This document shows positions 1 through 9,137 of a DNA stretch of 9,137 nt, one piece after another. Source of the DNA: a virus. Lineage: Duplodnaviria > Heunggongvirae > Uroviricota > Caudoviricetes. Where the stretch lies: positions 1-9,137 of IMG/VR virus record IMGVR_UViG_2648501165_000018; one strand, given 5' to 3'. How positions within the stretch are numbered: position 1 is the first letter of the stretch; each line of letters starts with the position of its first letter. The position numbers were made by a program, and so were the translations under genes. The notes under the pieces are model-generated. The model ran no database searches. It was not told the origin of the DNA and saw only the letters and a program-made list of their open reading frames with translations.

Positions 1-528
1 ATGCTAAATGTAAGGTTTGATTCAGAAAAGGCTTTAGAGGCCATTCTGTACGTCGCCTCTAAAGCACCGATCCCAGATATCTATCATGTCGGAAAAATTC
101 TTTATTATGCTGACAGGTTTCACCTTGAAAGTTTTGGACGCCTCATAACGGGCGATCACTATAACGCTATGAAGGATGGGCCTGTAGCAAGCAACACATA
201 CGATATTATAAAAATTGCTCGTGGAAATGGACGTTACATTCCTAATGGTTGTGATGTCGATTCTGTGCGAAAAGCATTTTCTGTATCAGGTATGACGATT
301 GTGCCGAGCCGTGAAGCTGATGAAGACTTTTTTAGTGACTCAGATTTAGAGTGTATTGATAAGTCTATCGCGATGCTTGGAAACATGTCCTTTGAAGCTA
401 TCAGAACCATGAGCCATGACGCGGCATGGGAACAGGCAGATCACAATGGTGAGATGTCTTTGGAATCGATAGTTGCACAGCTAAAAAATAGCAAATTAAT
501 ACTGGATTATCTGAAGAACGGATATTGA
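1..528 (+). CDS. Panacea-domain (DUF4065, SocA/PanA-like) protein, putative antitoxin or immunity component
   Basis: 175-aa ORF starting at the first base of the window, so the true start may lie upstream. The N-terminal half (…KALEAILYVASKAP…YHVGKILYYADRFHLESFGRLITGDHYNAMKDGPVASNTYDIIK) matches my recollection of the DUF4065/Panacea signature (KLxKLLYyAd…HL…g.pl…Y.A…GPV…Y). Stop TGA at 526-528 lies 5 nt before the first ATG of the next ORF. Family assignment is from memory, not from an HMM search. Confidence 0.6.
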   Translation: MLNVRFDSEKALEAILYVASKAPIPDIYHVGKILYYADRFHLESFGRLITGDHYNAMKDGPVASNTYDIIKIARGNGRYIPNGCDVDSVRKAFSVSGMTIVPSREADEDFFSDSDLECIDKSIAMLGNMSFEAIRTMSHDAAWEQADHNGEMSLESIVAQLKNSKLILDYLKNGY

Positions 529-533
529 TACTT

Positions 534-995
534 ATGCTGGGTGATTGTTTCCCTCCTGATTTTAAGGCTAATTTTAGTCGTGAAAGAGGTATATCACCCG
601 GTGATGTATTGTATCTTCATTGTGATTTTACGACCCCACCTAAAGTAAAATATATGGTGGTTGTTTGCTGTGAACCTCTTTTAGTTCTTCTAATAAATTC
701 AGATATAAATGAATTTATTAAGAGAAACAATGATCTTATGGCTTGTCAGGTCGAAATTAATAGAGAGGACCATGATTTTCTTAAATGGGACTCATTTGTT
801 AATTGCATTGAGGCTCATGCTGCTTTCGATCTTGAAATTATTAAAGAGAAAATAGCCATCCAATATGGTGACGTGCTAAAAGGTCGCATTACAGATCATT
901 GTATGAGACAAGTTCGATGTGCAGTTGAGATATCTAAAACTATGGTTAAACGGCATAAAAAACTGATACTCGCTGCTCTTCAACATTATGAATAA
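534..995 (+). CDS. hypothetical protein, candidate toxin/effector partner of the Panacea-domain gene
   Basis: ORF track gives 525..995 with a TTG start that overlaps the upstream stop; the first ATG is at 534 (MLGDCFPP…, 153 aa). No strong Shine-Dalgarno, consistent with translational coupling. Visibly AT-richer than the phage genes to its right. No catalytic motif recognised. Followed immediately by a hairpin terminator. Confidence 0.5.
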   Translation: MLGDCFPPDFKANFSRERGISPGDVLYLHCDFTTPPKVKYMVVVCCEPLLVLLINSDINEFIKRNNDLMACQVEINREDHDFLKWDSFVNCIEAHAAFDLEIIKEKIAIQYGDVLKGRITDHCMRQVRCAVEISKTMVKRHKKLILAALQHYE

Positions 996-1015
996 ACCCA
1001 TCTTTGGATGGGTTT
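994..1015. terminator. bidirectional intrinsic terminator between convergent operons
   Basis: Perfect 9-bp inverted repeat AAACCCATC (994-1002) / GATGGGTTT (1007-1015) with a TTTG loop. It is followed by TTTATTCAT on the plus strand and by an equivalent U-rich run on the minus strand. It sits between the stop of the + ORF (993-995) and the stop of the minus-strand PrtN-like ORF (1029-1031). Confidence 0.5.
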
Positions 1016-1028
1016 ATTCATATTCTAT

Positions 1029-1301
1029 TTAAATGAGCCTTTGTTTATGGGTTCTGACCCTTTCCCACTCAGCACGCCCTTCTTCTCGCCTTTTGTCTAT
1101 GTATTCCGCAAGATCCTGAATATTGATGCAACGTTTTGCTTTTTGTGATGTGCCGATGCGATATGTTGGAACGGGCAACTTACAAGCGTTTGCTTTTGCT
1201 TCTGCCGTGGCTGGACTCATGCCAAAGTACTTTTGGCTAACTGCTGAGAGTTCAATGTTAGGGGTATTGAATTCAGCCATCAGTAAAAACAAGGTGTTCA
1301 T
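1029..1301 (-). CDS. PrtN-like (pyocin-activator family) small DNA-binding protein
   Basis: The ORF track's 99-aa version begins at a GTG (1328). I prefer the ATG at 1301 (MNTLFLLMAEFNTPNIELSAVSQKYFGMSPATAEAKANACKLPVPTYRIG…), which is preceded by GGAGA 5 nt upstream; an ATG at 1313 is an alternative. Sequence resembles the PyocinActivator/PrtN family as I recall it. Last gene of the minus-strand operon. Confidence 0.5.
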   Translation of the reverse strand: MNTLFLLMAEFNTPNIELSAVSQKYFGMSPATAEAKANACKLPVPTYRIGTSQKAKRCINIQDLAEYIDKRREEGRAEWERVRTHKQRLI

Positions 1302-1337
1302 AATTTTCTCCATCAAAACCGGCTGCACCCGGGAAAA

Positions 1338-1910
1338 TCATAATTCTGTGCTGGTGGCAGGAATTAGTTTCTGCCAGATAGCGGAAACATATTTTGCCTG
1401 ATGACGGGCATCAGCCAGGGCGTTGTGCCGTTCGCCATCGAAAGGCATGTCCATTTTTGGGTCGAATCCGATGGAACGCCCAAGCGTAACGATCGTGCGT
1501 ACATCGTGGTCATTCCAGTACGCCCACGGGCAGATTTGTCCTGCTCGCTCGTAAGCTCCACGTAAAATTACGTTGTCGAAGGTGGCCCCGTTACCCCAGA
1601 CTTTTAAATATTTTGTATTGTCTGCATGCTGATTAATGAAATGGCTCAGTTCAGAGAGTGCATCGCTGATCGACAAAGTATCATCAATACAGATTGCAGC
1701 TCGTGCTTCAGAGCTCTGTTTCAACCACCACAGGATGGTATCGCCGTCAGGTGTAGCTCCTTGCCCCATAGCACTTTCCAGGCTAACAACCGTATAGAAT
1801 TCTTGTCCGATGTCTCCGGTTTCTGGAGTGAAGAACACCGCGCCAATGGAAACGATCGGTGCATCCTTATTTTTCCCCATCGTCTCAAGGTCGATCATTA
1901 AGTTATTCAT
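1338..1910 (-). CDS. DEDDh-type 3'-5' exonuclease (DnaQ-like fold)
   Basis: 190 aa. N-terminal MIDLETMG carries the Exo I D-x-E motif and HNALADARH near the C-terminus carries the Exo III H-x4-D motif. SD GGAGGTGA lies 5 nt upstream of the ATG at 1910. The start overlaps the upstream stop by 1 nt (TAATG). Confidence 0.7.
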   Translation of the reverse strand: MNNLMIDLETMGKNKDAPIVSIGAVFFTPETGDIGQEFYTVVSLESAMGQGATPDGDTILWWLKQSSEARAAICIDDTLSISDALSELSHFINQHADNTKYLKVWGNGATFDNVILRGAYERAGQICPWAYWNDHDVRTIVTLGRSIGFDPKMDMPFDGERHNALADARHQAKYVSAIWQKLIPATSTEL

Positions 1911-2221
1911 TACTTCACCTCCTGCGTTTCTTTGCTGCTGTGAATTCGCCAGTTACCGACGCCTTCCCATTCAAACTGGCGGTTACTAATTCGCGTCCAG
2001 CCCCTGCCGAAAAGCAAATCCAGATACCAGTATTTTAAAGTTCTGATAATTGCTCTTACAGTTGGTTTGCATCCAGAAGTCTTTGATGCGCAAATAAAGC
2101 ACCGAGTTATGCTCATGGCTTCTACAAAAGGCCAGATAAACCAAACCCAGATGCAAAGAGCCACGAACAACATGAGCGCGATGTTAGCCACTAAGCCAGA
2201 CCAGTACAGATAATTGCTCAT
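1910..2221 (-). CDS. hypothetical small membrane protein with Cys cluster
   Basis: 103 aa. A hydrophobic N-terminal segment (LVANIALMLFVALCIWVWFIWPFV) predicts one transmembrane helix, followed by CFICASKTSGCKP. The start at 2221 overlaps the upstream stop (ATGA-type junction). Confidence 0.5.
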   Translation of the reverse strand: MSNYLYWSGLVANIALMLFVALCIWVWFIWPFVEAMSITRCFICASKTSGCKPTVRAIIRTLKYWYLDLLFGRGWTRISNRQFEWEGVGNWRIHSSKETQEVK

Positions 2222-2601
2222 TGGTTGCCTCCACCTTGGCTCTGAAGCATGGCAGCGCGGCAGGCGTTCCAGCCATCAACATACCCAGCCATGATATATC
2301 GATTAAAACCCACCTCTTTCTGTGCGCGTGCCAGATTCATTTCCTCCGGCACGTGTACTGGCTGAGCTATATATAGCGGCTGAACATACCAACCCTTTGA
2401 TAACCAACTGTCAGCAACGTTTTTACTCCGTGTTATTGCCGGAATACCTAAGCCATTGTCTGAATGCAGCCATGCCACCGGTTCTGCTTCCAGCGATGCC
2501 AGCGTAATCCGTGCAAGTTCCATTTGTTCACCACGGGTAAGCCCGTTTTCAAGCGGATTTTTAATGAATAATTCGATACGTTCTTTGGTAATAGAATTCA
2601 T
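2218..2601 (-). CDS. hypothetical phage protein
   Basis: 127 aa. The ATG at 2601 is preceded by AAGGTG 7 nt upstream and lies 1 nt after the upstream stop (TAG C ATG). No domain recognised. Confidence 0.5.
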   Translation of the reverse strand: MNSITKERIELFIKNPLENGLTRGEQMELARITLASLEAEPVAWLHSDNGLGIPAITRSKNVADSWLSKGWYVQPLYIAQPVHVPEEMNLARAQKEVGFNRYIMAGYVDGWNACRAAMLQSQGGGNQ

Positions 2602-2602
2602 G

Positions 2603-2794
2603 CTATTTCACCTTAATCTCAACATTTCGCAGCTTTATGTCTACTGGTAGGTCTGACTTTCCTGTTAACGCTAATGCGAGATTTTCAGGAGTAATGAGAG
2701 CAGTTATTGTTTTCCCCATCGCCAGACGAATAATCATTCGTATCTCGCGATCGTCACATGCTCCCGGTCGAACAATTGAGATTTGTCCGTTCAT
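2603..2794 (-). CDS. hypothetical small phage protein (63 aa)
   Basis: ORF track gives 2603..2824 with a TTG start. The ATG at 2794 (MNGQISIVRPG…) has a strong SD AAGGAGAG 6 nt upstream and lies 1 nt after the upstream TGA, so I take 2794 as the start. Confidence 0.45.
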   Translation of the reverse strand: MNGQISIVRPGACDDREIRMIIRLAMGKTITALITPENLALALTGKSDLPVDIKLRNVEIKVK

Positions 2795-2795
2795 C

Positions 2796-3383
2796 TCACT
2801 CTCCTTTGATGCGAATGCCAGCAAGCCAGTTTCTTATGCCGATATATTCAGCGTTCCTGAAACCGCTTTTTACATATATAAATGGCAAGCGAAGATTGTG
2901 ACCGTTGGCTGCCAGGTAGTCTTTACAACCCTGTTCGGTGAAACAGCAGGTAACGAATTCATCAATATCTTTCACAGCAACGCGCCGCCATTTTTCTGGT
3001 GGTTCCCGAAAGTTTTCATGAAGTAGTTCGAGACGACGACTTTGGAGTTTATTGGCTTCATTGCCATCTTCATCAACCCAGACAATCCGGTCATAGTCAT
3101 AATCAGCATCAACAACAATTTCGCGCTTTTGATACACACAAAACATAGGGTCTGACGTTATTCGATTATCCTGTGTTCGAATATTTTCACCGATGATGCC
3201 AAACGAATCTGGCGTAGGTTTTGTCTGTAACTCTTCGATACGTTCAGCCAGCGCCGCGCACTTGGCCTCAGCTTCAGCAAATTTACGCACCAGGTACTCA
3301 GCGTTTGTTTCGTTCACTTTCAGATCTCGCGGTACACATTTCCCGCGAAGAAACCCTTCCATTTCGAAAACATTCATGCGCAT
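2796..3383 (-). CDS. hypothetical phage protein with N-terminal coiled-coil-like segment
   Basis: 195 aa from the ATG at 3383. An alternative ATG at 3377 forms an ATGA overlap with the stop of the upstream HD-domain gene. The N-terminus contains a helical, charged stretch (AEAEAKCAALAERIEELQ) and the C-terminus is acidic (DADYDYDRIVWVDEDGNE). No family recognised. Confidence 0.55.
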   Translation of the reverse strand: MRMNVFEMEGFLRGKCVPRDLKVNETNAEYLVRKFAEAEAKCAALAERIEELQTKPTPDSFGIIGENIRTQDNRITSDPMFCVYQKREIVVDADYDYDRIVWVDEDGNEANKLQSRRLELLHENFREPPEKWRRVAVKDIDEFVTCCFTEQGCKDYLAANGHNLRLPFIYVKSGFRNAEYIGIRNWLAGIRIKGE

Positions 3384-3910
3384 TTGCGTAACCCCGATAA
3401 CTCGTTAAAACGTTCCATAAACATCCCGTAGGCATGGCCTGGTGACAGTGGAATAACTTTGAACATCTCTGTCGCCGGGATACCTTCCAGTACAGGCCAG
3501 AAAGAGCCATCATCAAGCCCGAGATCGCGGCGTTCGGTTGCCAGCATAATGAGATCGGCATATTTCACAGGCGTGCTCATAACCGGGGGTAACCCGTATT
3601 TCTCACGGATTACGGCGTCTATTTTTTCTTCCATCCGTTTATAGTCAGGAAGAAGGCGTTTCAGTGGCGCGGGGATGTCCTGGCAATACGCTTCTGTTGC
3701 ATCATGCATTAACGCTTCAAAAGCAAATTCCTGTGGCACCAGCTGGCTGCAAAGCACCGCATGTTGGGCGACGCTGTAGAAGTGTGAAAGATGTCCTGCA
3801 AAGCGACAGATATTTGAAAGGGAAACCGCGATATCGTTAATCACGATGTCGTCTTTATTTATCCTGTCATAATAAAAATGCTTCCCGGAAAAAGTTTTAA
3901 TAAATGACAT
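3374..3910 (-). CDS. yfdR: HD-domain phosphohydrolase, YfdR-like (5'-deoxynucleotidase family)
   Basis: ORF track starts at a GTG (3940). The ATG at 3910 (MSFIKTFSG…) has SD GGAGAA 4-5 nt upstream and gives 178 aa. HD-domain signature residues are present (…ICRFAGH…, …LMHDATEAY…). Length and synteny with a 274-aa and a 120-aa gene match the yfdP-yfdQ-yfdR block of the E. coli CPS-53 prophage as I recall it; the symbol is assigned from recalled length, synteny and motif, not from alignment. Confidence 0.65.
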   Translation of the reverse strand: MSFIKTFSGKHFYYDRINKDDIVINDIAVSLSNICRFAGHLSHFYSVAQHAVLCSQLVPQEFAFEALMHDATEAYCQDIPAPLKRLLPDYKRMEEKIDAVIREKYGLPPVMSTPVKYADLIMLATERRDLGLDDGSFWPVLEGIPATEMFKVIPLSPGHAYGMFMERFNELSGLRKCA

Positions 3911-4003
3911 TTTGTTCTCCACGTAAATGTGTTGCACCACGCTGAATTCTGGTAAAAGGAAGCCCTCACCATCCGGTGATTATTGAGTTAATTACGTTTC
4001 CAT

Positions 4004-4025
4004 AAATGCCCCCGCAGGGGCATTT
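4004..4025 (-). other. intercistronic RNA hairpin between the yfdQ-like and yfdR-like genes
   Basis: AAATGCCCC (4004-4012) / GGGGCATTT (4017-4025) forms a 9-bp stem with a 4-nt loop, 13 nt downstream of the yfdQ-like stop. The downstream sequence on the minus strand is only moderately U-rich, so it is more likely a stability/processing hairpin or weak attenuator than a strong terminator. It lies in an unusually long (127-bp) spacer in an otherwise overlapping operon. Confidence 0.3.
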
Positions 4026-4037
4026 GCAGTAATGAAA

Positions 4038-4862
4038 TCAGGCGGTGAAAGTACCAATAAAGGTTTCTACTTTGCTGTCTTTGAATTTCTCAACAAGCAG
4101 ATCACGAAATTCGTTAGCCATTTCCTCCTGCACTGCTTCCAGCTGAATAATGCGCAGAACCAGTACAGGACGATCGCCAGTGATAATGCTGAGGCGTAAT
4201 TTAAACGGACGTTCTTTCAGGCCTTCAAACGGAACGCATTTGAATTCAAATGCCACTGGCATAATGTCTTTGGTTTTCGCTTCGACAGACTCCATCAGGG
4301 AGCGTTTGCCGCTGAAGTCATTGTCTTCAAAATCAGCGGTCTGGTTTGCTTCAATCGTGATTTTACGGACTGCCGCAGCTGCTTTTGTTGCCTGAATAGC
4401 GTCACCATTAGCATCAAAGCCCACAAGGTAGTCCGCCCAGTCTTCAATCCATTCTGCCAGTGACTTCTGGGAGTTACGCTCGCCATTAACAGACAACAGA
4501 GCAGAGAACGGTGCTGTCTTTTTCAGTTTGAGAGTGGCGGTGTTATCTGCGTGGCCTGGTTCATCAATAGTACCAAGATTAAGCACACTGACAGCACGCA
4601 TATTATCAGCATCGATAAAGCAGCGGGTGCCTTCATCTGCAAGATCTTTAGAATAACGGGTAAAGTCATCGATGCTGGCAGTGGAAAGCGCACCACGGAA
4701 ACGGAAGCGATTTAAATTAAATTTTTCCAGATCATGAATGCGGAAATTCTCAGGCAATGCCACAGCATCAGCACCAATCTTACTGATAATTTCATTAACA
4801 CCCTGAGCAGAAATAAGGGCATGGATTTGATTAATTGCAGTTGCGTCTAAGTTCTGAGACAT
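4038..4862 (-). CDS. yfdQ: YfdQ-like protein (DUF2303 family), function unknown
   Basis: 274 aa. The ATG at 4862 has SD GAGGA 6 nt upstream. Length and position between the YfdP-like and YfdR-like genes match the CPS-53 yfdP-yfdQ-yfdR arrangement. Assignment is by recollection, not alignment. Confidence 0.6.
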
Positions 4863-4927
4863 AATAAGTCCTCACTATATAAAGATATTCAGTGATGAGA
4901 TAAAAAATCAGTTTATTAAGAACGATA

Positions 4928-5290
4928 TTAACGACCTGCTGCGCGGAGTTTTCCGTCAGGTTCACCGGCAAGAGTCAGTAATTGTCCCTGGTCTTCCTGC
5001 AGAATAGTCAGACGACCACCGCGATTGACATACATCGGCGTTTCGGTGGTGTCTTCTTCGGAAATTTTCCCGCGGTTAGTCGGGCGAACATATGAGAGTT
5101 TGTGTTTGATTTTCACACGGTTCTCATCAAATGGTTCGATTTCCAGGTTGAGTGAGACCTTACCTTTGGTTTTCGTGTTCATCACACCGGAAGCGACTTC
5201 ACTGAGAACTGCGCCGATTTTGGTTTCAAATACGCCGCCGTCCAGCTCCCCGATAAATGCCTGCACATCAGTACTGCGTTCGCTAGCCAT
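4928..5290 (-). CDS. YfdP-like hypothetical phage protein (120 aa), first gene of the early-left operon
   Basis: ORF track extends to a TTG at 5476 and runs through a terminator hairpin. The ATG at 5290 (MASERSTDVQAFIGELDGG…) has SD GAGGAG 6-8 nt upstream and gives 120 aa, the length I recall for YfdP. Confidence 0.55.
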   Translation of the reverse strand: MASERSTDVQAFIGELDGGVFETKIGAVLSEVASGVMNTKTKGKVSLNLEIEPFDENRVKIKHKLSYVRPTNRGKISEEDTTETPMYVNRGGRLTILQEDQGQLLTLAGEPDGKLRAAGR

Positions 5291-5338
5291 TTTGCTGCTC
5301 CTCATCATATCGACCCTGCAAGGTCGGTTGGTTTCTCC

Positions 5339-5427
5339 ACAAAACAGAGAAGAACACCTGCGGTGGCAGCCGCCCGGATGGATTGGGTTATGAGCCCGTC
5401 GTCCGGTGATGCTCTTCTCTGTTTTGT
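5339..5427. repeat. 89-bp element bounded by perfect 15-bp inverted repeats (ACAAAACAGAGAAGA … TCTTCTCTGTTTTGT)
   Basis: Positions 5339-5353 are the exact reverse complement of 5413-5427. The 59-bp interior is GC-rich and holds further short palindromes (CCGGA…TCCGG, GCGG…CCGC). It lies in the untranslated leader just upstream of the YfdP-like RBS and directly downstream (on the minus strand) of the terminator U-tract. Confidence 0.6.
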
Positions 5428-5434
5428 AAAAAGA

Positions 5435-5473
5435 GCGGTACCAGCCGGAAGCAAGTGTACAAACTGGTACCGC
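5435..5473 (-). terminator. intrinsic terminator in the early-left leader
   Basis: 10-bp GC-rich stem GCGGTACCAG (5435-5444) / CTGGTACCGC (5464-5473) with a 19-nt loop. On the minus strand the 3' arm is followed directly by TCTTTTTAC (reverse complement of 5426-5434). Confidence 0.5.
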
Positions 5474-5904
5474 CAAAGCAGTGGCTGTTGTGGTGATCGG
5501 TGATGATCTCCGGCTTGCGGTTATTTCAGACTCTCACGGGCATTTAATTGCCCCGCCGAACAGCTCTTTTCCGCAATAGCTGCAATGTCTTTCGCGCATC
5601 AGCCTGCGCATTCACCACAACGCTGAGAGCACTTAGCCAGTTACGGCACCACACTTTGTCGCGGTTCCATAAATGCCCTCATAGTTGCACCCTGGTCTCT
5701 TCCCAGGCGTCAAACCGAATCGCCACGCTGGTTAGGCGTCTTATCAGCATCATCATTGACTTGCACATTCCGGCTACCTGGTTTGTTTGCCCGAGCAAGG
5801 AGTGGATTGTCCCCTTTAACGTCCCCAGACCGCTAACGACGCATGTGCCATACGCCGTGTTACAACCAAATTTTGTTAGTACCTTGTTTGTTGGTCTGGA
5901 AAGA

Positions 5905-5957
5905 AAGATAAAATGAAGTTGCGCATTATGCAAGTATTTTTGTTGCGAGATATGCAA
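5905..5957 (-). promoter_or_regulatory. candidate OL operators and PL-like leftward promoter
   Basis: Two copies of a 15-bp motif TTGCG-N3-TATGCAA (5919-5933 TTGCGCATTATGCAA; 5943-5957 TTGCGAGATATGCAA), centres 24 bp apart. The same motif with one mismatch occurs in the cI/cro intergenic region. On the minus strand a -35 TTGCAT (5928-5933) and a -10 TATCTT (5905-5910) are 17 bp apart and overlap the first site. Promoter assignment is by eye only. Confidence 0.35.
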
Positions 5958-5974
5958 TTTGATGGGTAATGAAA

Positions 5975-5992
5975 AGCCACCTTCGGGTGGCT
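5975..5992 (-). terminator. intrinsic terminator downstream of the cI-like repressor gene
   Basis: AGCCACC (5975-5981) / TTCG loop / GGTGGCT (5986-5992), 20 nt after the cI stop. On the minus strand it is followed by TTTCATTAC. Confidence 0.5.
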
Positions 5993-6012
5993 AATTGATG
6001 AGGAGGTAAGGG

Positions 6013-6705
6013 TTAATTGTGTCGCTTAAGGGTTTGTGACTGGCTGATTAAGACCTTTCCAAAGACCATAAACCGGTGTTCATTTTCGCTGGTAATTCCC
6101 CATTCACGATAAATCTGGTTATCAGAAATCACCAGTAGTTTGTCAGGTATCATTTGCAGTCGTTTGACATAAATTTTATCATCAAAACCAAATACATAGA
6201 TACCATCTCCATCAAACTGATTGATACTGACATCAACGAAGATGAGATCTCCTGGCTCAATGGTTGGACACATACTGTCCCCACGAACGTTGATAACTTT
6301 AATGTGATTTGCTGGCCGTCCGCCAAACATCGATACAGCATTATCAGTTCTGTATTCAATGGCATGAATCACATCAATGACATCTCCGCCCTGGATAAGG
6401 CCATTTCCCGCACTGGCACTGATATCCAGCATTTCAATACGGAATACATCCTTCACCTGCGCAATATCCTCACTAATACTGTTTTTACATACAGTATTAC
6501 TTTTGAAGTCTGAGGTAAAGAGATCAGCAATATCAACACCTAAGCTCCTGGCAATATTACTCAGGGCTTGTTCAGTGAATTGTTTCTGCTTACCTGTTTC
6601 GAGGCGCGAGATATTCGCCGCATCCACTCCTATTGCTTCAGCGAGATCGGCGATTTTCATGTTCTTCGCCTGGCGAAGTTGTCTGACTCGATTTCCTATG
6701 TTCAT
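6013..6705 (-). CDS. CI-like prophage repressor (HTH-XRE N-terminal domain + S24 LexA-like autopeptidase domain)
   Basis: 230 aa. N-terminal HTH (VRQLRQAKNMKIADLAEAIGVDAANISRLETGK). C-terminal S24 signature with the catalytic Ser in RGDSMCPTIEPGDLIFVD and the Lys in IYVKRL, plus an Ala-Gly candidate cleavage site (SASAGNG). Divergent from the Cro-like gene. The -10-like TGTAAT ends 6 nt before the ATG, suggesting a leaderless or short-leader mRNA as with lambda PRM. Confidence 0.8.
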   Translation of the reverse strand: MNIGNRVRQLRQAKNMKIADLAEAIGVDAANISRLETGKQKQFTEQALSNIARSLGVDIADLFTSDFKSNTVCKNSISEDIAQVKDVFRIEMLDISASAGNGLIQGGDVIDVIHAIEYRTDNAVSMFGGRPANHIKVINVRGDSMCPTIEPGDLIFVDVSINQFDGDGIYVFGFDDKIYVKRLQMIPDKLLVISDNQIYREWGITSENEHRFMVFGKVLISQSQTLKRHN

Positions 6706-6802
6706 GCGTTTATTACATTTCTTTATTGCGCGTTAAGCAAATCAACTTGCGCAAAATATTTGCGTGAAATAATATGCTCATCACGCAATATGTGGAGGTT
6801 AT
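6706..6802. promoter_or_regulatory. divergent immunity control region (OR-like operators, PRM-like and PR-like promoters)
   Basis: Operator-like sites: TTGCGCGTTAAGCAA (6726-6740), the palindromic TTGCGCAA (6747-6754), and the inverted repeat TTGCGTGA (6760-6767) / TCACGCAA (6781-6788). Rightward candidate promoter: -35 TTGCGC (6747-6752), 17-bp spacer, -10 TAATAT (6770-6775). Leftward candidate promoter: -35 TTGCTT (6735-6740 on minus), 17-bp spacer, -10 TGTAAT (6712-6717 on minus). SD GGAGG (6794-6798) precedes the cro-like ATG at 6803. Confidence 0.45.
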
Positions 6803-7063
6803 ATGCAATCACCATTACGGAATGTGCGTAAGGCGCACGGATTTACTTTGCAGCATGTTGCTGCGGGCGTTCAGGTCAATCCAGCGACGCTGAGTCGTAT
6901 TGAAAGACTGGAACAAATTCCATCTATCGAGCTTGCAGAACGTCTGGCCAATTTTTTTAAGGGAGAAATCAGCGAAATGCAGATTCTCTATCCTGCACGC
7001 TTTCAATCTAGTCAAAACCGGAATGAGTTAAAACCACAGGAACAGGAGGTAAGCCGTGGGTAA
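6803..7063 (+). CDS. Cro-like HTH-XRE transcriptional regulator
   Basis: 86 aa. HTH (LRNVRKAHGFTLQHVAAGVQVNPATLSRIERLE). First gene rightward of the repressor, preceded by GGAGG. Confidence 0.7.
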   Translation: MQSPLRNVRKAHGFTLQHVAAGVQVNPATLSRIERLEQIPSIELAERLANFFKGEISEMQILYPARFQSSQNRNELKPQEQEVSRG

Positions 7064-7607
7064 GCATCACTGGAAAGTGGAAAAACAGCCTGAGTGGTAC
7101 GTGAAAGCTGTCAGAAAAACTATCGCGGCGTTGCCGGGGGGTTACGCTGAAGCTGCTGAGTGGCTGGATGTAACAGAGAACGCTTTATTCAACCGCCTTC
7201 GTGCCGATGGCGATCAGTTTTTTCCGTTGGGATGGGCAATGGTTTTACAGCGTGCGGCTGGTACTCACCACATTGCGGATGCTGTCGCACAGTCTGCTGG
7301 TGGGGTGTTTGTATCACTTCCAGAAATTGAGGAAGTAGAGAACGCCGATATAAACCAGCGCCTGCTGGAAGTCATCGAACAGATCGGGAGTTACTCAAAG
7401 CAGATTCGTTCGGCAATCGAAGATGGGGTAGTGGAGCCACACGAGCAGACAGCAATTAATGATGAGTTGTATCTGTCAATTTCGAAGCTCCAGGAGCATG
7501 CAGCACTGGTCTACAAAATCTTCTGCGCTCCAGAAAAGAGTAACGCCCGCGAGTGTGCAGCTCCGGGCGTCGTGGCGTTTTGTGTCTGTGGAGAAACTAA
7601 CGCATGA
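7056..7607 (+). CDS. CII-like phage regulatory protein (186-CII/CP76-type, positional CII equivalent)
   Basis: 183 aa. GTG start at 7056 with a strong SD AGGAGGT (7044-7050) 5 nt upstream; overlaps the cro-like stop by 8 nt. Putative HTH GGYAEAAEWLDVTENALFNRLRADGDQ, followed by a …FFPLGWAMVLQRAAGTHHIADAVAQ… segment reminiscent of the phage 186 CII family as I recall it. Same position as cII in lambdoid layouts. Confidence 0.55.
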   Translation: MGKHHWKVEKQPEWYVKAVRKTIAALPGGYAEAAEWLDVTENALFNRLRADGDQFFPLGWAMVLQRAAGTHHIADAVAQSAGGVFVSLPEIEEVENADINQRLLEVIEQIGSYSKQIRSAIEDGVVEPHEQTAINDELYLSISKLQEHAALVYKIFCAPEKSNARECAAPGVVAFCVCGETNA

Positions 7608-8764
7608 ACAGTTTAACGGCAAATAACCGTTTGTCGCAACAGCTGGTGGTCAGTGTCGCTGCACACCTGTTGTTACGGCATGAATGCAGATTACCAAATC
7701 ACCTGGCTGTAAGTAACCACAGAGAACTTTACCTGACTGTGGGGGGCGAGTTGTGCAGGAACTTAACCGCTGGTTTCGTGACGGAAGAGGACTTTATGTT
7801 CATGTTATTCGTTGGGAGCCAGAAACACAGCGCGTTATCTATCTTCGCAAAGACTACCCGCATGAGTGCTTTAGTCCTTTGTGGAAATTCAGGCGTGATT
7901 TTGTTGAGTGTGAAGGACCACCAGCATATTGATTCTGCAATTCCGGGACGTTACACTGTTCAGGCACCTTATAAAGCGGGTGCCGGGATTGGCGTCCTGA
8001 AATTGTCAACGGCGATGTATGACGCGCCAGCGTCTTTTTTATCGTCCGCATTTGCTCACATCCAGATTATGGTGGGCTGGGCGGGGGCACCGAAAGGTGC
8101 GCCGGTCTCCGTTGACGCCGGTTACGCCAACCCCGTCCAGTTCACCACCAGTGAAATTGGCGTTTCCGGTGGTGGAAGTTTTTCACTGTCAACGGAGGCT
8201 GCCATCATGGCTACGATCCAAGCCCTCACTCAACCTGAAATCACCATTGACAACGGCCAGGCCGTTACCACTTCTTTGGCTGTTGCCAACTTCTTCTCCA
8301 AGCGTCACGACGATGTGCTGAAAAAGATCCGCACTCTGGATTGTTCCCCTGAGTTTTGTGCCCGCAATTTTGCGGAGACATCGATTTCGGTAAATCAACC
8401 GAACGGTGGTACACGCAAGCTCCCTTGCTATCAAATCACACGAGACGGTTTTGCGTTTCTTGCTATGGGTTTCACGGGTAAACGTGCTGCCCGGTTCAAA
8501 GAGGCATACATCAATGCCTTTAACCAGATGGAAAAACTGCTTTCAAAGCCATCCACGCTGAGCGATGCCGCAGATAACGCCAGCGTGCTTTACTCCCACC
8601 TGTCGGTAATCCACAAGGTCTGGCTGCAGCAGCTTTATCCTATGTTGGCAAAAGCTGAATCTCCGCTGGCTGTTAGCTTATATGATTATATTAATGATGC
8701 TTCGGCGCTGGCCTGCCTCATAAATTTGTCGCTGAACCCTTCAGAGGTAAGGGGGCGCAAATGA
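7604..8764 (+). CDS. Rha-domain phage regulatory protein (antirepressor-like); N-terminal extent uncertain
   Basis: The C-terminal ~185 aa (from the ATG at 8207, MATIQALTQPEITIDNGQAVTTSLAVANFFSKRHDDVLKKIRTL…ITRDGFAFLAMGFTGKRAARFKEAYINAFNQME) matches the Rha family as I recall it, and that ATG has a strong SD GGAGG 8 nt upstream. The frame is nevertheless open back to the ATG at 7604, which forms an ATGA junction with the CII-like gene; codon usage and the R/P/S-rich shadow frame argue that at least 8019-8206 is coding in this frame. The reported span is the full open frame. 8207..8764 is the conservative core. Confidence 0.5.
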   Translation: MNSLTANNRLSQQLVVSVAAHLLLRHECRLPNHLAVSNHRELYLTVGGELCRNLTAGFVTEEDFMFMLFVGSQKHSALSIFAKTTRMSALVLCGNSGVILLSVKDHQHIDSAIPGRYTVQAPYKAGAGIGVLKLSTAMYDAPASFLSSAFAHIQIMVGWAGAPKGAPVSVDAGYANPVQFTTSEIGVSGGGSFSLSTEAAIMATIQALTQPEITIDNGQAVTTSLAVANFFSKRHDDVLKKIRTLDCSPEFCARNFAETSISVNQPNGGTRKLPCYQITRDGFAFLAMGFTGKRAARFKEAYINAFNQMEKLLSKPSTLSDAADNASVLYSHLSVIHKVWLQQLYPMLAKAESPLAVSLYDYINDASALACLINLSLNPSEVRGRK

Positions 8765-8985
8765 TCCGGAATATTTTCAAACGGTTTACCAATCAGACTT
8801 TCCGTTGTCCTCGTCCGGGTCAGTGGTACACCACACCTGCAGGGCATGTTCTACGTGTTAGCCTGGTTGACCGTGAATGTCAGAAGGTGATTTGTGAACC
8901 GCTTGGCCGTAATTACCGCGTCAGTATGCCGCTTATAGCCTTTCGCTCCGGAAAAAACATGAAGCATCTCGGAGGTGCAGCATGA
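8761..8985 (+). CDS. hypothetical small phage protein (74 aa)
   Basis: ATGA overlap with the Rha ORF stop at 8761-8764 and a second ATGA overlap with the next gene's start at 8982-8985. Basic, Cys-containing (RCPRPGQW…RECQKVICEP). No domain recognised. Confidence 0.45.
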   Translation: MIRNIFKRFTNQTFRCPRPGQWYTTPAGHVLRVSLVDRECQKVICEPLGRNYRVSMPLIAFRSGKNMKHLGGAA

Positions 8986-9137
8986 GTATGGAGCTGATGG
9001 TTAAAGCGATGAAAATTCGAGTGGGTAATCCATTGCGAAAACTGGTTCTGATCAAGCTGGCTGATAATGCCAGCGATCAGGGTGAGTGCTGGCCCAGCTA
9101 CCAGCATATTGAACCGCCCCGGGTTTCCTGGAGAGTA
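8982..9137 (+). CDS. phage replication-initiation-type protein, N-terminal HTH fragment (truncated by window end)
   Basis: ATG at 8982 with SD GGAGG (8971-8975) 6 nt upstream. MSMELMVKAMKIRVGNPLRKLVLIKLADNASDQGECWPSYQHI… resembles the N-terminal winged-HTH of phage replication proteins (the …KLVLLALADHANDDGECFPS… pattern). Runs off the end of the window. Confidence 0.5.
   Translation, partial: MSMELMVKAMKIRVGNPLRKLVLIKLADNASDQGECWPSYQHIEPPRVSWRV

Follow-up and report, generated by a model that had tools for sequence, protein, structure and literature searches.

The window analysed here is a 9,137-nt stretch of Caudoviricetes DNA (Duplodnaviria; Heunggongvirae; Uroviricota; IMG/VR record IMGVR_UViG_2648501165_000018, positions 1 to 9,137) whose minus strand carries three consecutive genes: yfdP (4928-5290), the first gene of an early-left operon; yfdQ (4038-4862), which encodes a DUF2303 protein; and yfdR (3374-3910), which encodes an HD-domain phosphohydrolase and DnaA-binding protein. 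An earlier note, made from the DNA letters alone, had described genes of 120, 274 and 178 aa and likened them to a block in the Escherichia coli cryptic prophage CPS-53. Both points hold. The lengths are those from the annotated ATG starts – the mechanical open reading frames (ORFs) begin further upstream, at TTG or GTG codons – and BLASTP comparison to the CPS-53 proteins of K-12 MG1655 (NC_000913) found identity at 118 of 120 residues for YfdP (98%), 272 of 274 for YfdQ (99%), and 173 of 178 for YfdR (97%), with the YfdR substitutions at positions 16, 151, 155, 169, and 172. Protein identity of 97-99% makes these the same genes as yfdP, yfdQ, and yfdR, not merely similar ones. Judged by sequence, the region almost certainly comprises ordinary alleles of known, already annotated prophage genes.

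These alleles are widespread. Of 5426 complete E. coli genomes, 3022 contain the 2.1-kb block at 90% identity or more, with the genes already named by PGAP, and a 2.6-kb query that adds the early leftward (PL) leader matches 97 phage records. Among them are mEp460, Ayreon, PhiR phages, cdtI, SfV/SfII/SfIV, and Stx2a/2c/2k converting phages, and some are plaque-forming. Since the genes are near-identical to annotated ones, the finding is ordinary and adds little by itself. Its interest lies in yfdP and yfdQ being among the commonest early genes of enterobacterial temperate phages without having a recognisable fold, and in the natural role of YfdR – nucleotidase or DnaA antagonist.

The yfdP-yfdQ-yfdR(-yfdS-yfdT) genes of CPS-53 (KpLE1) have the same order and spacing as those in the window. 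DNA homology to K-12 spans window positions 3280-5309, from 19 nt before the yfdP ATG to ~100 nt inside yfdS, and the two loci differ beyond each end. Homology stops at 5309; the PL leader, the leader RNA described below, and the cI region further upstream have no K-12 counterpart. At the other end, the window has yfdS swapped after ~48 codons for ead/Ea22-like sequence. The resulting chimeric gene (2796-3383, minus strand) shares 10 nt at its start with the end of yfdR and encodes the YfdS N-terminus for its first ~48 aa and an ead/Ea22-like protein for the rest. Its product aligns with K-12 YfdS over residues 1-64 only (69% identity by BLASTP), phrog_3205 covers residues 39-194, and PGAP calls the equivalent gene partial.

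The YfdP-YfdQ pair and the HD protein YfdR

YfdQ matches Pfam DUF2303 (PF10065) over residues 7-272 at 309.7 bits, far above the cutoff of 26.6 (E 2e-92), and YfdP belongs to phrog_204 (E 1e-49), with PF27127 found on all of its close homologues. The yfdP stop codon lies 65 nt before the yfdQ start. A tblastn count against a phage collection gave 184 records with YfdQ and 180 with YfdP, distributed almost identically over hosts: 53 and 52 Escherichia, 26 and 26 Stx2a phage, 15 and 15 Stx2c phage, 15 and 15 Xanthomonas, and 32 and 27 Vibrio records, respectively.

We compared nine distant genomic contexts of yfdQ: P13374, Pseudomonas pAN, Vibrio 24E35.2, Xanthomonas CP2 and MET23-P3, ST64B, Halomonas H4907, Acinetobacter fJoAci01, and mEp460. 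A co-oriented gene of 115-140 aa lies directly upstream of yfdQ in all nine, and profile comparison, made for three of them, each time identified this gene as a homologue of YfdP (probability 99%, E 1e-20 to 1e-22). A yfdR gene is near the pair in only some of these contexts (ST64B, pAN, and mEp460), and Vibrio, Xanthomonas, and Stx2a phages carry YfdP-YfdQ without YfdR. By gene neighbourhood, then, YfdP and YfdQ behave as an obligate pair of neighbours in phages ranging from those of Escherichia to those of Xanthomonas, and YfdR appears to spread independently. The three genes are therefore not the single cassette that had been proposed.

A hairpin between yfdQ and yfdR (4004-4025, minus strand; AAAUGCCCC-UGCG-GGGGCAUUU) is a candidate weak terminator or module boundary. 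It has no T-run; the homologous site in phage Ayreon is annotated as a terminator. In K-12, the transcription unit is listed as yfdPQ, and the yfdO/yfdP spacer is the strongest SrsR binding site (PMC9181523).

The AlphaFold2 model of YfdQ has a pLDDT of 75.6 and a conserved but low-confidence segment at residues 172-198; that of YfdP (pLDDT 67.1) consists of a helix, a three-stranded sheet, and a conserved disordered tail. Neither model returned meaningful structural neighbours. A search for related loci with the YfdQ alignment returned identical E. coli copies only. The DUF2303 assignment in the earlier note stands, but the protein is already structurally touched: PDB entry 9o7m (‘YfdQ Protein’, 36 chains) is a YfdQ homologue by sequence (E 1e-44). 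The 274-aa chain shares 99% identity with a protein encoded by Xanthomonas phage MET23-P3, and the 36 chains imply a very large assembly. Our literature search found no paper for this entry. In another report, production of YfdQ affected the release of a co-resident phage (bioRxiv 413146).

The distal end of the early-left operon carries a gene for an Rv2179c-like DnaQ-fold 3'-5' exonuclease (1338-1910, minus strand; PF16473, E 2e-75). In Pseudomonas phage pAN and in ST64B, YfdQ and a YfdR-like HD protein come with a homologous exonuclease, and in Vibrio phage 24E35.2 the gene before yfdP is DnaQ-like. These observations suggest a looser four-gene association of the pair, the HD protein, and the exonuclease.

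YfdR carries the H..HD..D metal-binding motif (H50, H69-D70, D119), which places it in the HD superfamily and bears out the HD signature noticed earlier. In a four-way alignment of YfdR, K-12 YfdR, a 38%-identical Pseudomonas phage homologue, and YfbR – the HD-domain 5'-deoxynucleotidase of E. coli – residues R36, H50, H69, D70, E73, D78, and D119 are invariant. We take these seven to be the substrate, metal, and catalytic residues of the YfbR structure. YfdR matches the phage family phrog_318 (E 1e-109), annotated in PHROG as a deoxynucleoside monophosphate (dNMP) phosphatase, and the closest solved relative is Atu1052 (PDB 2gz4, E 3e-13).

YfdR nevertheless falls below both YfbR family cutoffs, scoring 24.3 bits against the Pfam YfbR-like family (PF12917; gathering cutoff 25.9) and 19.9 bits against the NCBIfam YfbR equivalog (NF003009; cutoff 122), and it is therefore a member of a sister subfamily, not a YfbR orthologue. 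The two proteins have the HD fold and the metal, catalytic, and substrate residues in common at only 21% identity. As the earlier note proposed, the HD protein is the one annotated as a 5'-deoxynucleotidase. PMC4776307 describes YfdR as a structural homologue of the dNMP phosphatase YfbR and cites Zimmerman 2008 for a nucleotide affinity far below that of YfbR. A further difference from YfbR is an additional DnaA-binding activity: purified YfdR showed Phe46-dependent binding to DnaA domains I-II and moderate competition with DiaA and DnaB (PMC4776307). Binding to DnaA domain I is the only published activity of YfdR besides weak nucleotide binding.

The PL region and its leader RNA

Over its whole length the window is 99.96% identical to a ~51-kb prophage integrated in dusA of the bovine strain OkiPb01711. 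This prophage carries a complete lambda-like set of head and tail genes, as well as Q, lysis genes, and type III secretion system effector cargo; its integrase lies at the far end beside the restored dusA, and its excisionase at the window end. The description of an apparently intact phage fits the morphogenesis set and the integrase. It does not fit the replication gene, which is interrupted by an IS3 insertion sequence 15 nt past the window end, nor the several pseudogenes and truncated early genes. Loci recorded for the dusA integration and IS3 are L001 25779-26992 (15 nt beyond the window end), L001 16329-16433, and L090 24604-26827.

A cI-like repressor with helix-turn-helix and S24 peptidase domains is encoded at 6013-6705 (minus strand; phrog_4 and phrog_6201; an XRE family regulator according to PGAP), followed by a terminator-like hairpin (5975-5992, minus strand). 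Two TTGCG-N6-GCAA operators, TTGCGCATTATGCAA and TTGCGAGATATGCAA, occupy 5919-5933 and 5943-5957, a third exact copy lies beside the cI start (6726-6740), and the same operators are kept in ST64B. Operator copies on both sides of cI indicate an OL/PL-OR arrangement. We infer PL hexamers TTGCAT-17-TATCTT at 5933-5905, which a consensus promoter scan did not call. The yfdP/Q/R block is transcribed away from the repressor, downstream of the 5919-5957 operators, which agrees with its placement in the early-left operon of a lambdoid prophage. It does not sit directly behind PL, as the earlier note had it: a non-coding leader of ~600 nt separates the operators from the yfdP ATG, and no convincing ORF was found between them.

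This leader did not yield a lambda-type N/nut module. No N-like ORF was found in the 720-nt leader, YfdP is not Arg-rich, and the boxA-like CGCTCTTTTTACAA is part of a stem and is not conserved among leader variants. Two candidates for an N-like or small coding ORF were rejected because they look non-coding: an Arg-rich one of 25 aa (5534-5611) and an antisense one of 122 aa. Leader substitutions relative to ST64B have no 3-nt periodicity in the conserved block.

The early-left gene order of the window is the same in mEp460, SfV, Ayreon, cdtI, ST64B, and Stx2c phages: cI, long leader, yfdP, yfdQ, yfdR, ead-like genes, a DnaQ-like 3'-5' exonuclease, and a PrtN-type excisionase. The block heads the PL operon in the functional phages mEp460, Ayreon, SfV, ST64B, cdtI, and Stx2 phages. 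Its identity to the window copy ranges from 97% in mEp460 (DNA) to 57% in ST64B (protein). Unlike the window copy, which belongs to a prophage with an IS-disrupted replication gene, the mEp460, SfV, Ayreon, cdtI, ST64B, and Stx2c genomes are complete, and several of these phages are plaque-forming.

Leader identity to ST64B is ~50-60% by eye, except in a ~115-nt island that is ~88% identical by eye. We identified here a previously undescribed structured leader RNA, a three-way junction of ~105 nt (5330-5434, minus strand) that lies ~40 nt before the yfdP ATG; other copies include L092:3929-4033 and L095:3509-3574. Its minimum free energy is -72 kcal/mol (z -4.25 relative to shuffles). An exact-pattern scan of IMG/VR viral contigs found at least 120 loci, which reduce to 35 clearly distinct variants. 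The consensus has a long outer stem P1, a P2 arm (CCGGR/YCCGG) with an invariant internal loop and the tip GGG-CUCAUAA-CCC, and a variable hairpin P3. Covariation was counted on 25 sequences, with slid partners and 500 shuffles as controls. Consistent with a conserved fold, 97% of cells were paired compared to 37-53% with slid partners, eight pairs (38 cells) had changed on both sides compared to 0-2 pairs (0-9 cells), and none of the 500 shuffles reached the observed score. G-U pairs fix the RNA strand as that of the PL transcript.

A covariance model matches this RNA at 116 bits, with one copy in the whole prophage, and the RNA is present in 2493 of 5426 complete E. coli genomes. The model found no match in HK022 or in distant YfdP-YfdQ phages, and no Rfam 15 family matches the RNA. 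Over 14 nt, the invariant tip of P2, GGGCUCAUAACCC, has exactly the sequence of the anticodon arm in the E. coli initiator tRNA metY. We rejected a tRNA (ARAGORN finds none), a Pas small RNA (these adjoin structural genes), and AgvB or AsxR (excluded by the Rfam 15 search, if those are Rfam families). Like HK022 put and lambda nutL, the leader RNA would be a cis RNA element in the PL leader before the first early gene, and no N-like gene was found in the phage that carries it. The absence of an HK022 match argues that it is not put-like; put is, moreover, a ~74-nt element of two stems present in both early operons, in contrast to a ~105-nt three-way junction found once per prophage.

The gene that follows the leader RNA varies – yfdP-yfdQ in most variants, yfdR directly in a few, lysis genes in a Klebsiella class – and the RNA is therefore a leader module independent of any one gene. 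In the Klebsiella phages, the match is to the inner core and lies in the late-operon leader downstream of Q, with a tRNA-Arg gene immediately before it; the outer stem there ends in GCCA. A small hairpin (CGACC-UUGCAG-GGUCG; 5311-5326, minus strand) just before the yfdP Shine-Dalgarno occurs in nearly all leader copies; its stem covaries and its loop core, (U/G)GCA, is kept whatever gene comes next. Variants without yfdPQ have the leader RNA joined directly to a hairpin of the 4004-4025 type, so that yfdPQ resembles an insertable module with the two similar hairpins as its borders. Candidate roles for the leader RNA include RNase P or RNase III processing, control of translation or transcription elongation, and a decoy for nucleases that attack the initiator-tRNA anticodon loop. 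The leader RNA is possibly the more original lead from this locus, and together with the YfdP-YfdQ pairing it merits a further look.

A proposed replication takeover and competing explanations

We next consider what the three genes do. In the explanation that we favour, they would head the early-left operon and be expressed from PL when the prophage is induced or the phage infects. YfdR would be a metal-dependent HD phosphohydrolase – a weak dNMP phosphatase – that also binds DnaA domain I, at the same Phe46 patch as DiaA and DnaB, and YfdR, YfdQ, and a downstream partner would lower oriC initiation, an early takeover of host replication analogous to the action of lambda P on DnaA. YfdP-YfdQ would form a separate, obligately paired two-gene module, with YfdQ probably assembling into a large homo-oligomer that acts on the DNA metabolism of host or phage. 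As a whole – known alleles, PL expression, DnaA takeover, and a separate pair – this is the best explanation that we can offer, held tentatively and with slightly less than even confidence. Replication takeover as the main biological role is possible, though somewhat short of probable. That takeover operates at natural expression levels during phage development is something we infer, as is what YfdP-YfdQ do. We rank DnaA takeover first for its direct, though multicopy, evidence, an enzymatic role of YfdR second, and a role of YfdP-YfdQ in recombination or DNA metabolism third.

The direct evidence is published, so the block is not uncharacterised as had been stated. The gene run yfdQ-yfdR-yfdS-yfdT was isolated as a multicopy suppressor of hda-185 over-initiation (Noguchi and Katayama 2016, PMC4776307). 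Multicopy yfdQ and yfdR together with either yfdS or yfdT inhibit oriC initiation in vivo, with yfdP dispensable, and extracts from cells overproducing YfdQRST inhibit oriC replication in vitro (PMC4776307). A role in phage growth was proposed by the same authors (PMC4776307). Lambda P and Bacillus subtilis SirA are likewise small proteins that bind the host initiator and lower oriC initiation, and SirA uses the same patch of DnaA domain I as YfdR (Phe49 and Phe46, respectively; PMC4776307). Neither is homologous to YfdR, and lambda P binds domain III. The YfdR effect differs from theirs in needing partner genes and in being seen at multicopy only.

Several observations weigh against replication takeover. 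Deletion of yfdQRST in K-12 had no replication phenotype, and the authors concede a possible overexpression artefact (PMC4776307). In the window, yfdQ and yfdR are both present and intact, but the published inhibitor set is incomplete: YfdS is represented by only ~48 residues, and the one ORF compared with YfdT, a 127-aa DUF551-like ORF, does not match it (E 0.025 over 10 residues). The occurrence of the pair without YfdR means that the role of YfdP-YfdQ cannot be merely to assist YfdR. YfdR also occurs in phages of hosts with a different DnaA domain I, which points to an enzymatic ancestral function.

That last point leads to the alternative, raised in the earlier note, that YfdR is mainly an enzyme, a phosphohydrolase for dNMPs or other nucleotides, which would reshape nucleotide pools or destroy a defence nucleotide, with DnaA binding a side effect of overexpression. 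We regard this as unlikely on balance, though it survives better than the other alternatives. Homologues of YfdR occur in 337 phage records with hosts that include Bacillus, Caulobacter, Rhizobium, Vibrio, and Pseudomonas – a breadth that fits host-independent chemistry. Combined with an active site kept invariant from YfbR to the Pseudomonas phage homologue, and in keeping with the PHROG annotation, this breadth argues that YfdR was ancestrally selected for its chemistry; binding to DnaA may have been added in particular lineages. The low nucleotide affinity relative to YfbR, cited in PMC4776307, is evidence to the contrary. So is the lack of a link to defence: our literature search found no paper tying yfdP, yfdQ, or yfdR to defence in general or to CBASS, Thoeris, Pycsar, or depletion defences, and PADLOC returned no match for any of the three products, though its models cover defence systems only and this silence says little about anti-defence. 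Finally, the phage enzymes known to degrade signalling nucleotides have other folds, which also counts against an enzymatic main role.

A second alternative is that YfdP-YfdQ modulates DNA recombination or repair, for instance as an oligomeric DNA-binding complex or one that modulates RecA or a nuclease. By analogy of position, this is conceivable but improbable. In ~12 of 94 distinct variants, the gene that comes first behind the leader RNA, in the slot of yfdP-yfdQ, encodes an RdgC homologue (305-309 aa; PF04381, E 2e-113). Distant phages have the pair among early and DNA-metabolism genes, beside a recombinase, exonuclease, single-stranded DNA-binding protein, or DnaQ-like exonuclease. A 36-chain assembly of a YfdQ homologue, as well as the weak sensitivity of K-12 yfdQ mutants to methyl methanesulfonate and H2O2 cited in PMC4776307, would also fit. 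Positional analogy is weak evidence, however, and P13374 and Xanthomonas phages carry the pair alongside a complete RecT/exo or recombinase/exo set, so the pair does not replace such a set. YfdQ and RdgC themselves are not homologous by hhalign (probability 0.1%). The RdgC-bearing leader loci are L177, L161, and ~10 other IMG/VR loci.

A joint reading of the pair and the leader RNA is about as improbable as a recombination role. In it, YfdP-YfdQ would be a self-contained and widespread phage module, a large new-fold homo-oligomer with a part in early DNA-metabolism takeover, interchangeable with RdgC behind the leader RNA, and the anticodon-arm mimic in the leader RNA would be regulatory or a decoy. 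Candidates for what the mimic does include RNase P or RNase III processing, binding of the ribosome or initiation factor 3, and protection from tRNA-fMet nucleases.

It is very unlikely that the block in the present prophage is a decaying passenger without current function: the IS3 in the replication gene, the truncated early genes, and the persistence of the K-12 block inside a 10-kb cryptic remnant would suit that idea, but none of the three frames is broken, plaque-forming phages carry copies 97-99% identical to them, and the block is kept at 90% identity or more in over half of complete E. coli genomes.

Other features of the window

Rfam models place isrK at 7964-8040 (62 bits) and C4 antisense RNA at 8065-8152 (81 bits), both on the plus strand and above the gathering score. 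These RNAs (7951-8152) fall inside the N-terminal part of a 386-aa ORF (7604-8764) that PGAP treats as one Rha-family protein, the Rha/antirepressor domain of which begins only near residue 200. The segment 7988-8194 is exactly the part not in common with phage mEp460. The region resembles a P1 immI-type C4/antirepressor immunity cassette, and the upstream ‘coding’ part is probably RNA.

At the other end of the window (1-995, plus strand), a gene for a Panacea-domain (DUF4065) protein and a 156-aa ORF that overlaps it and has no assigned family lie between the dusA remnant and the PrtN-type excisionase. Neither gene had a PADLOC or NCBIfam match, and the two are likely a toxin-antitoxin pair or an exclusion moron.

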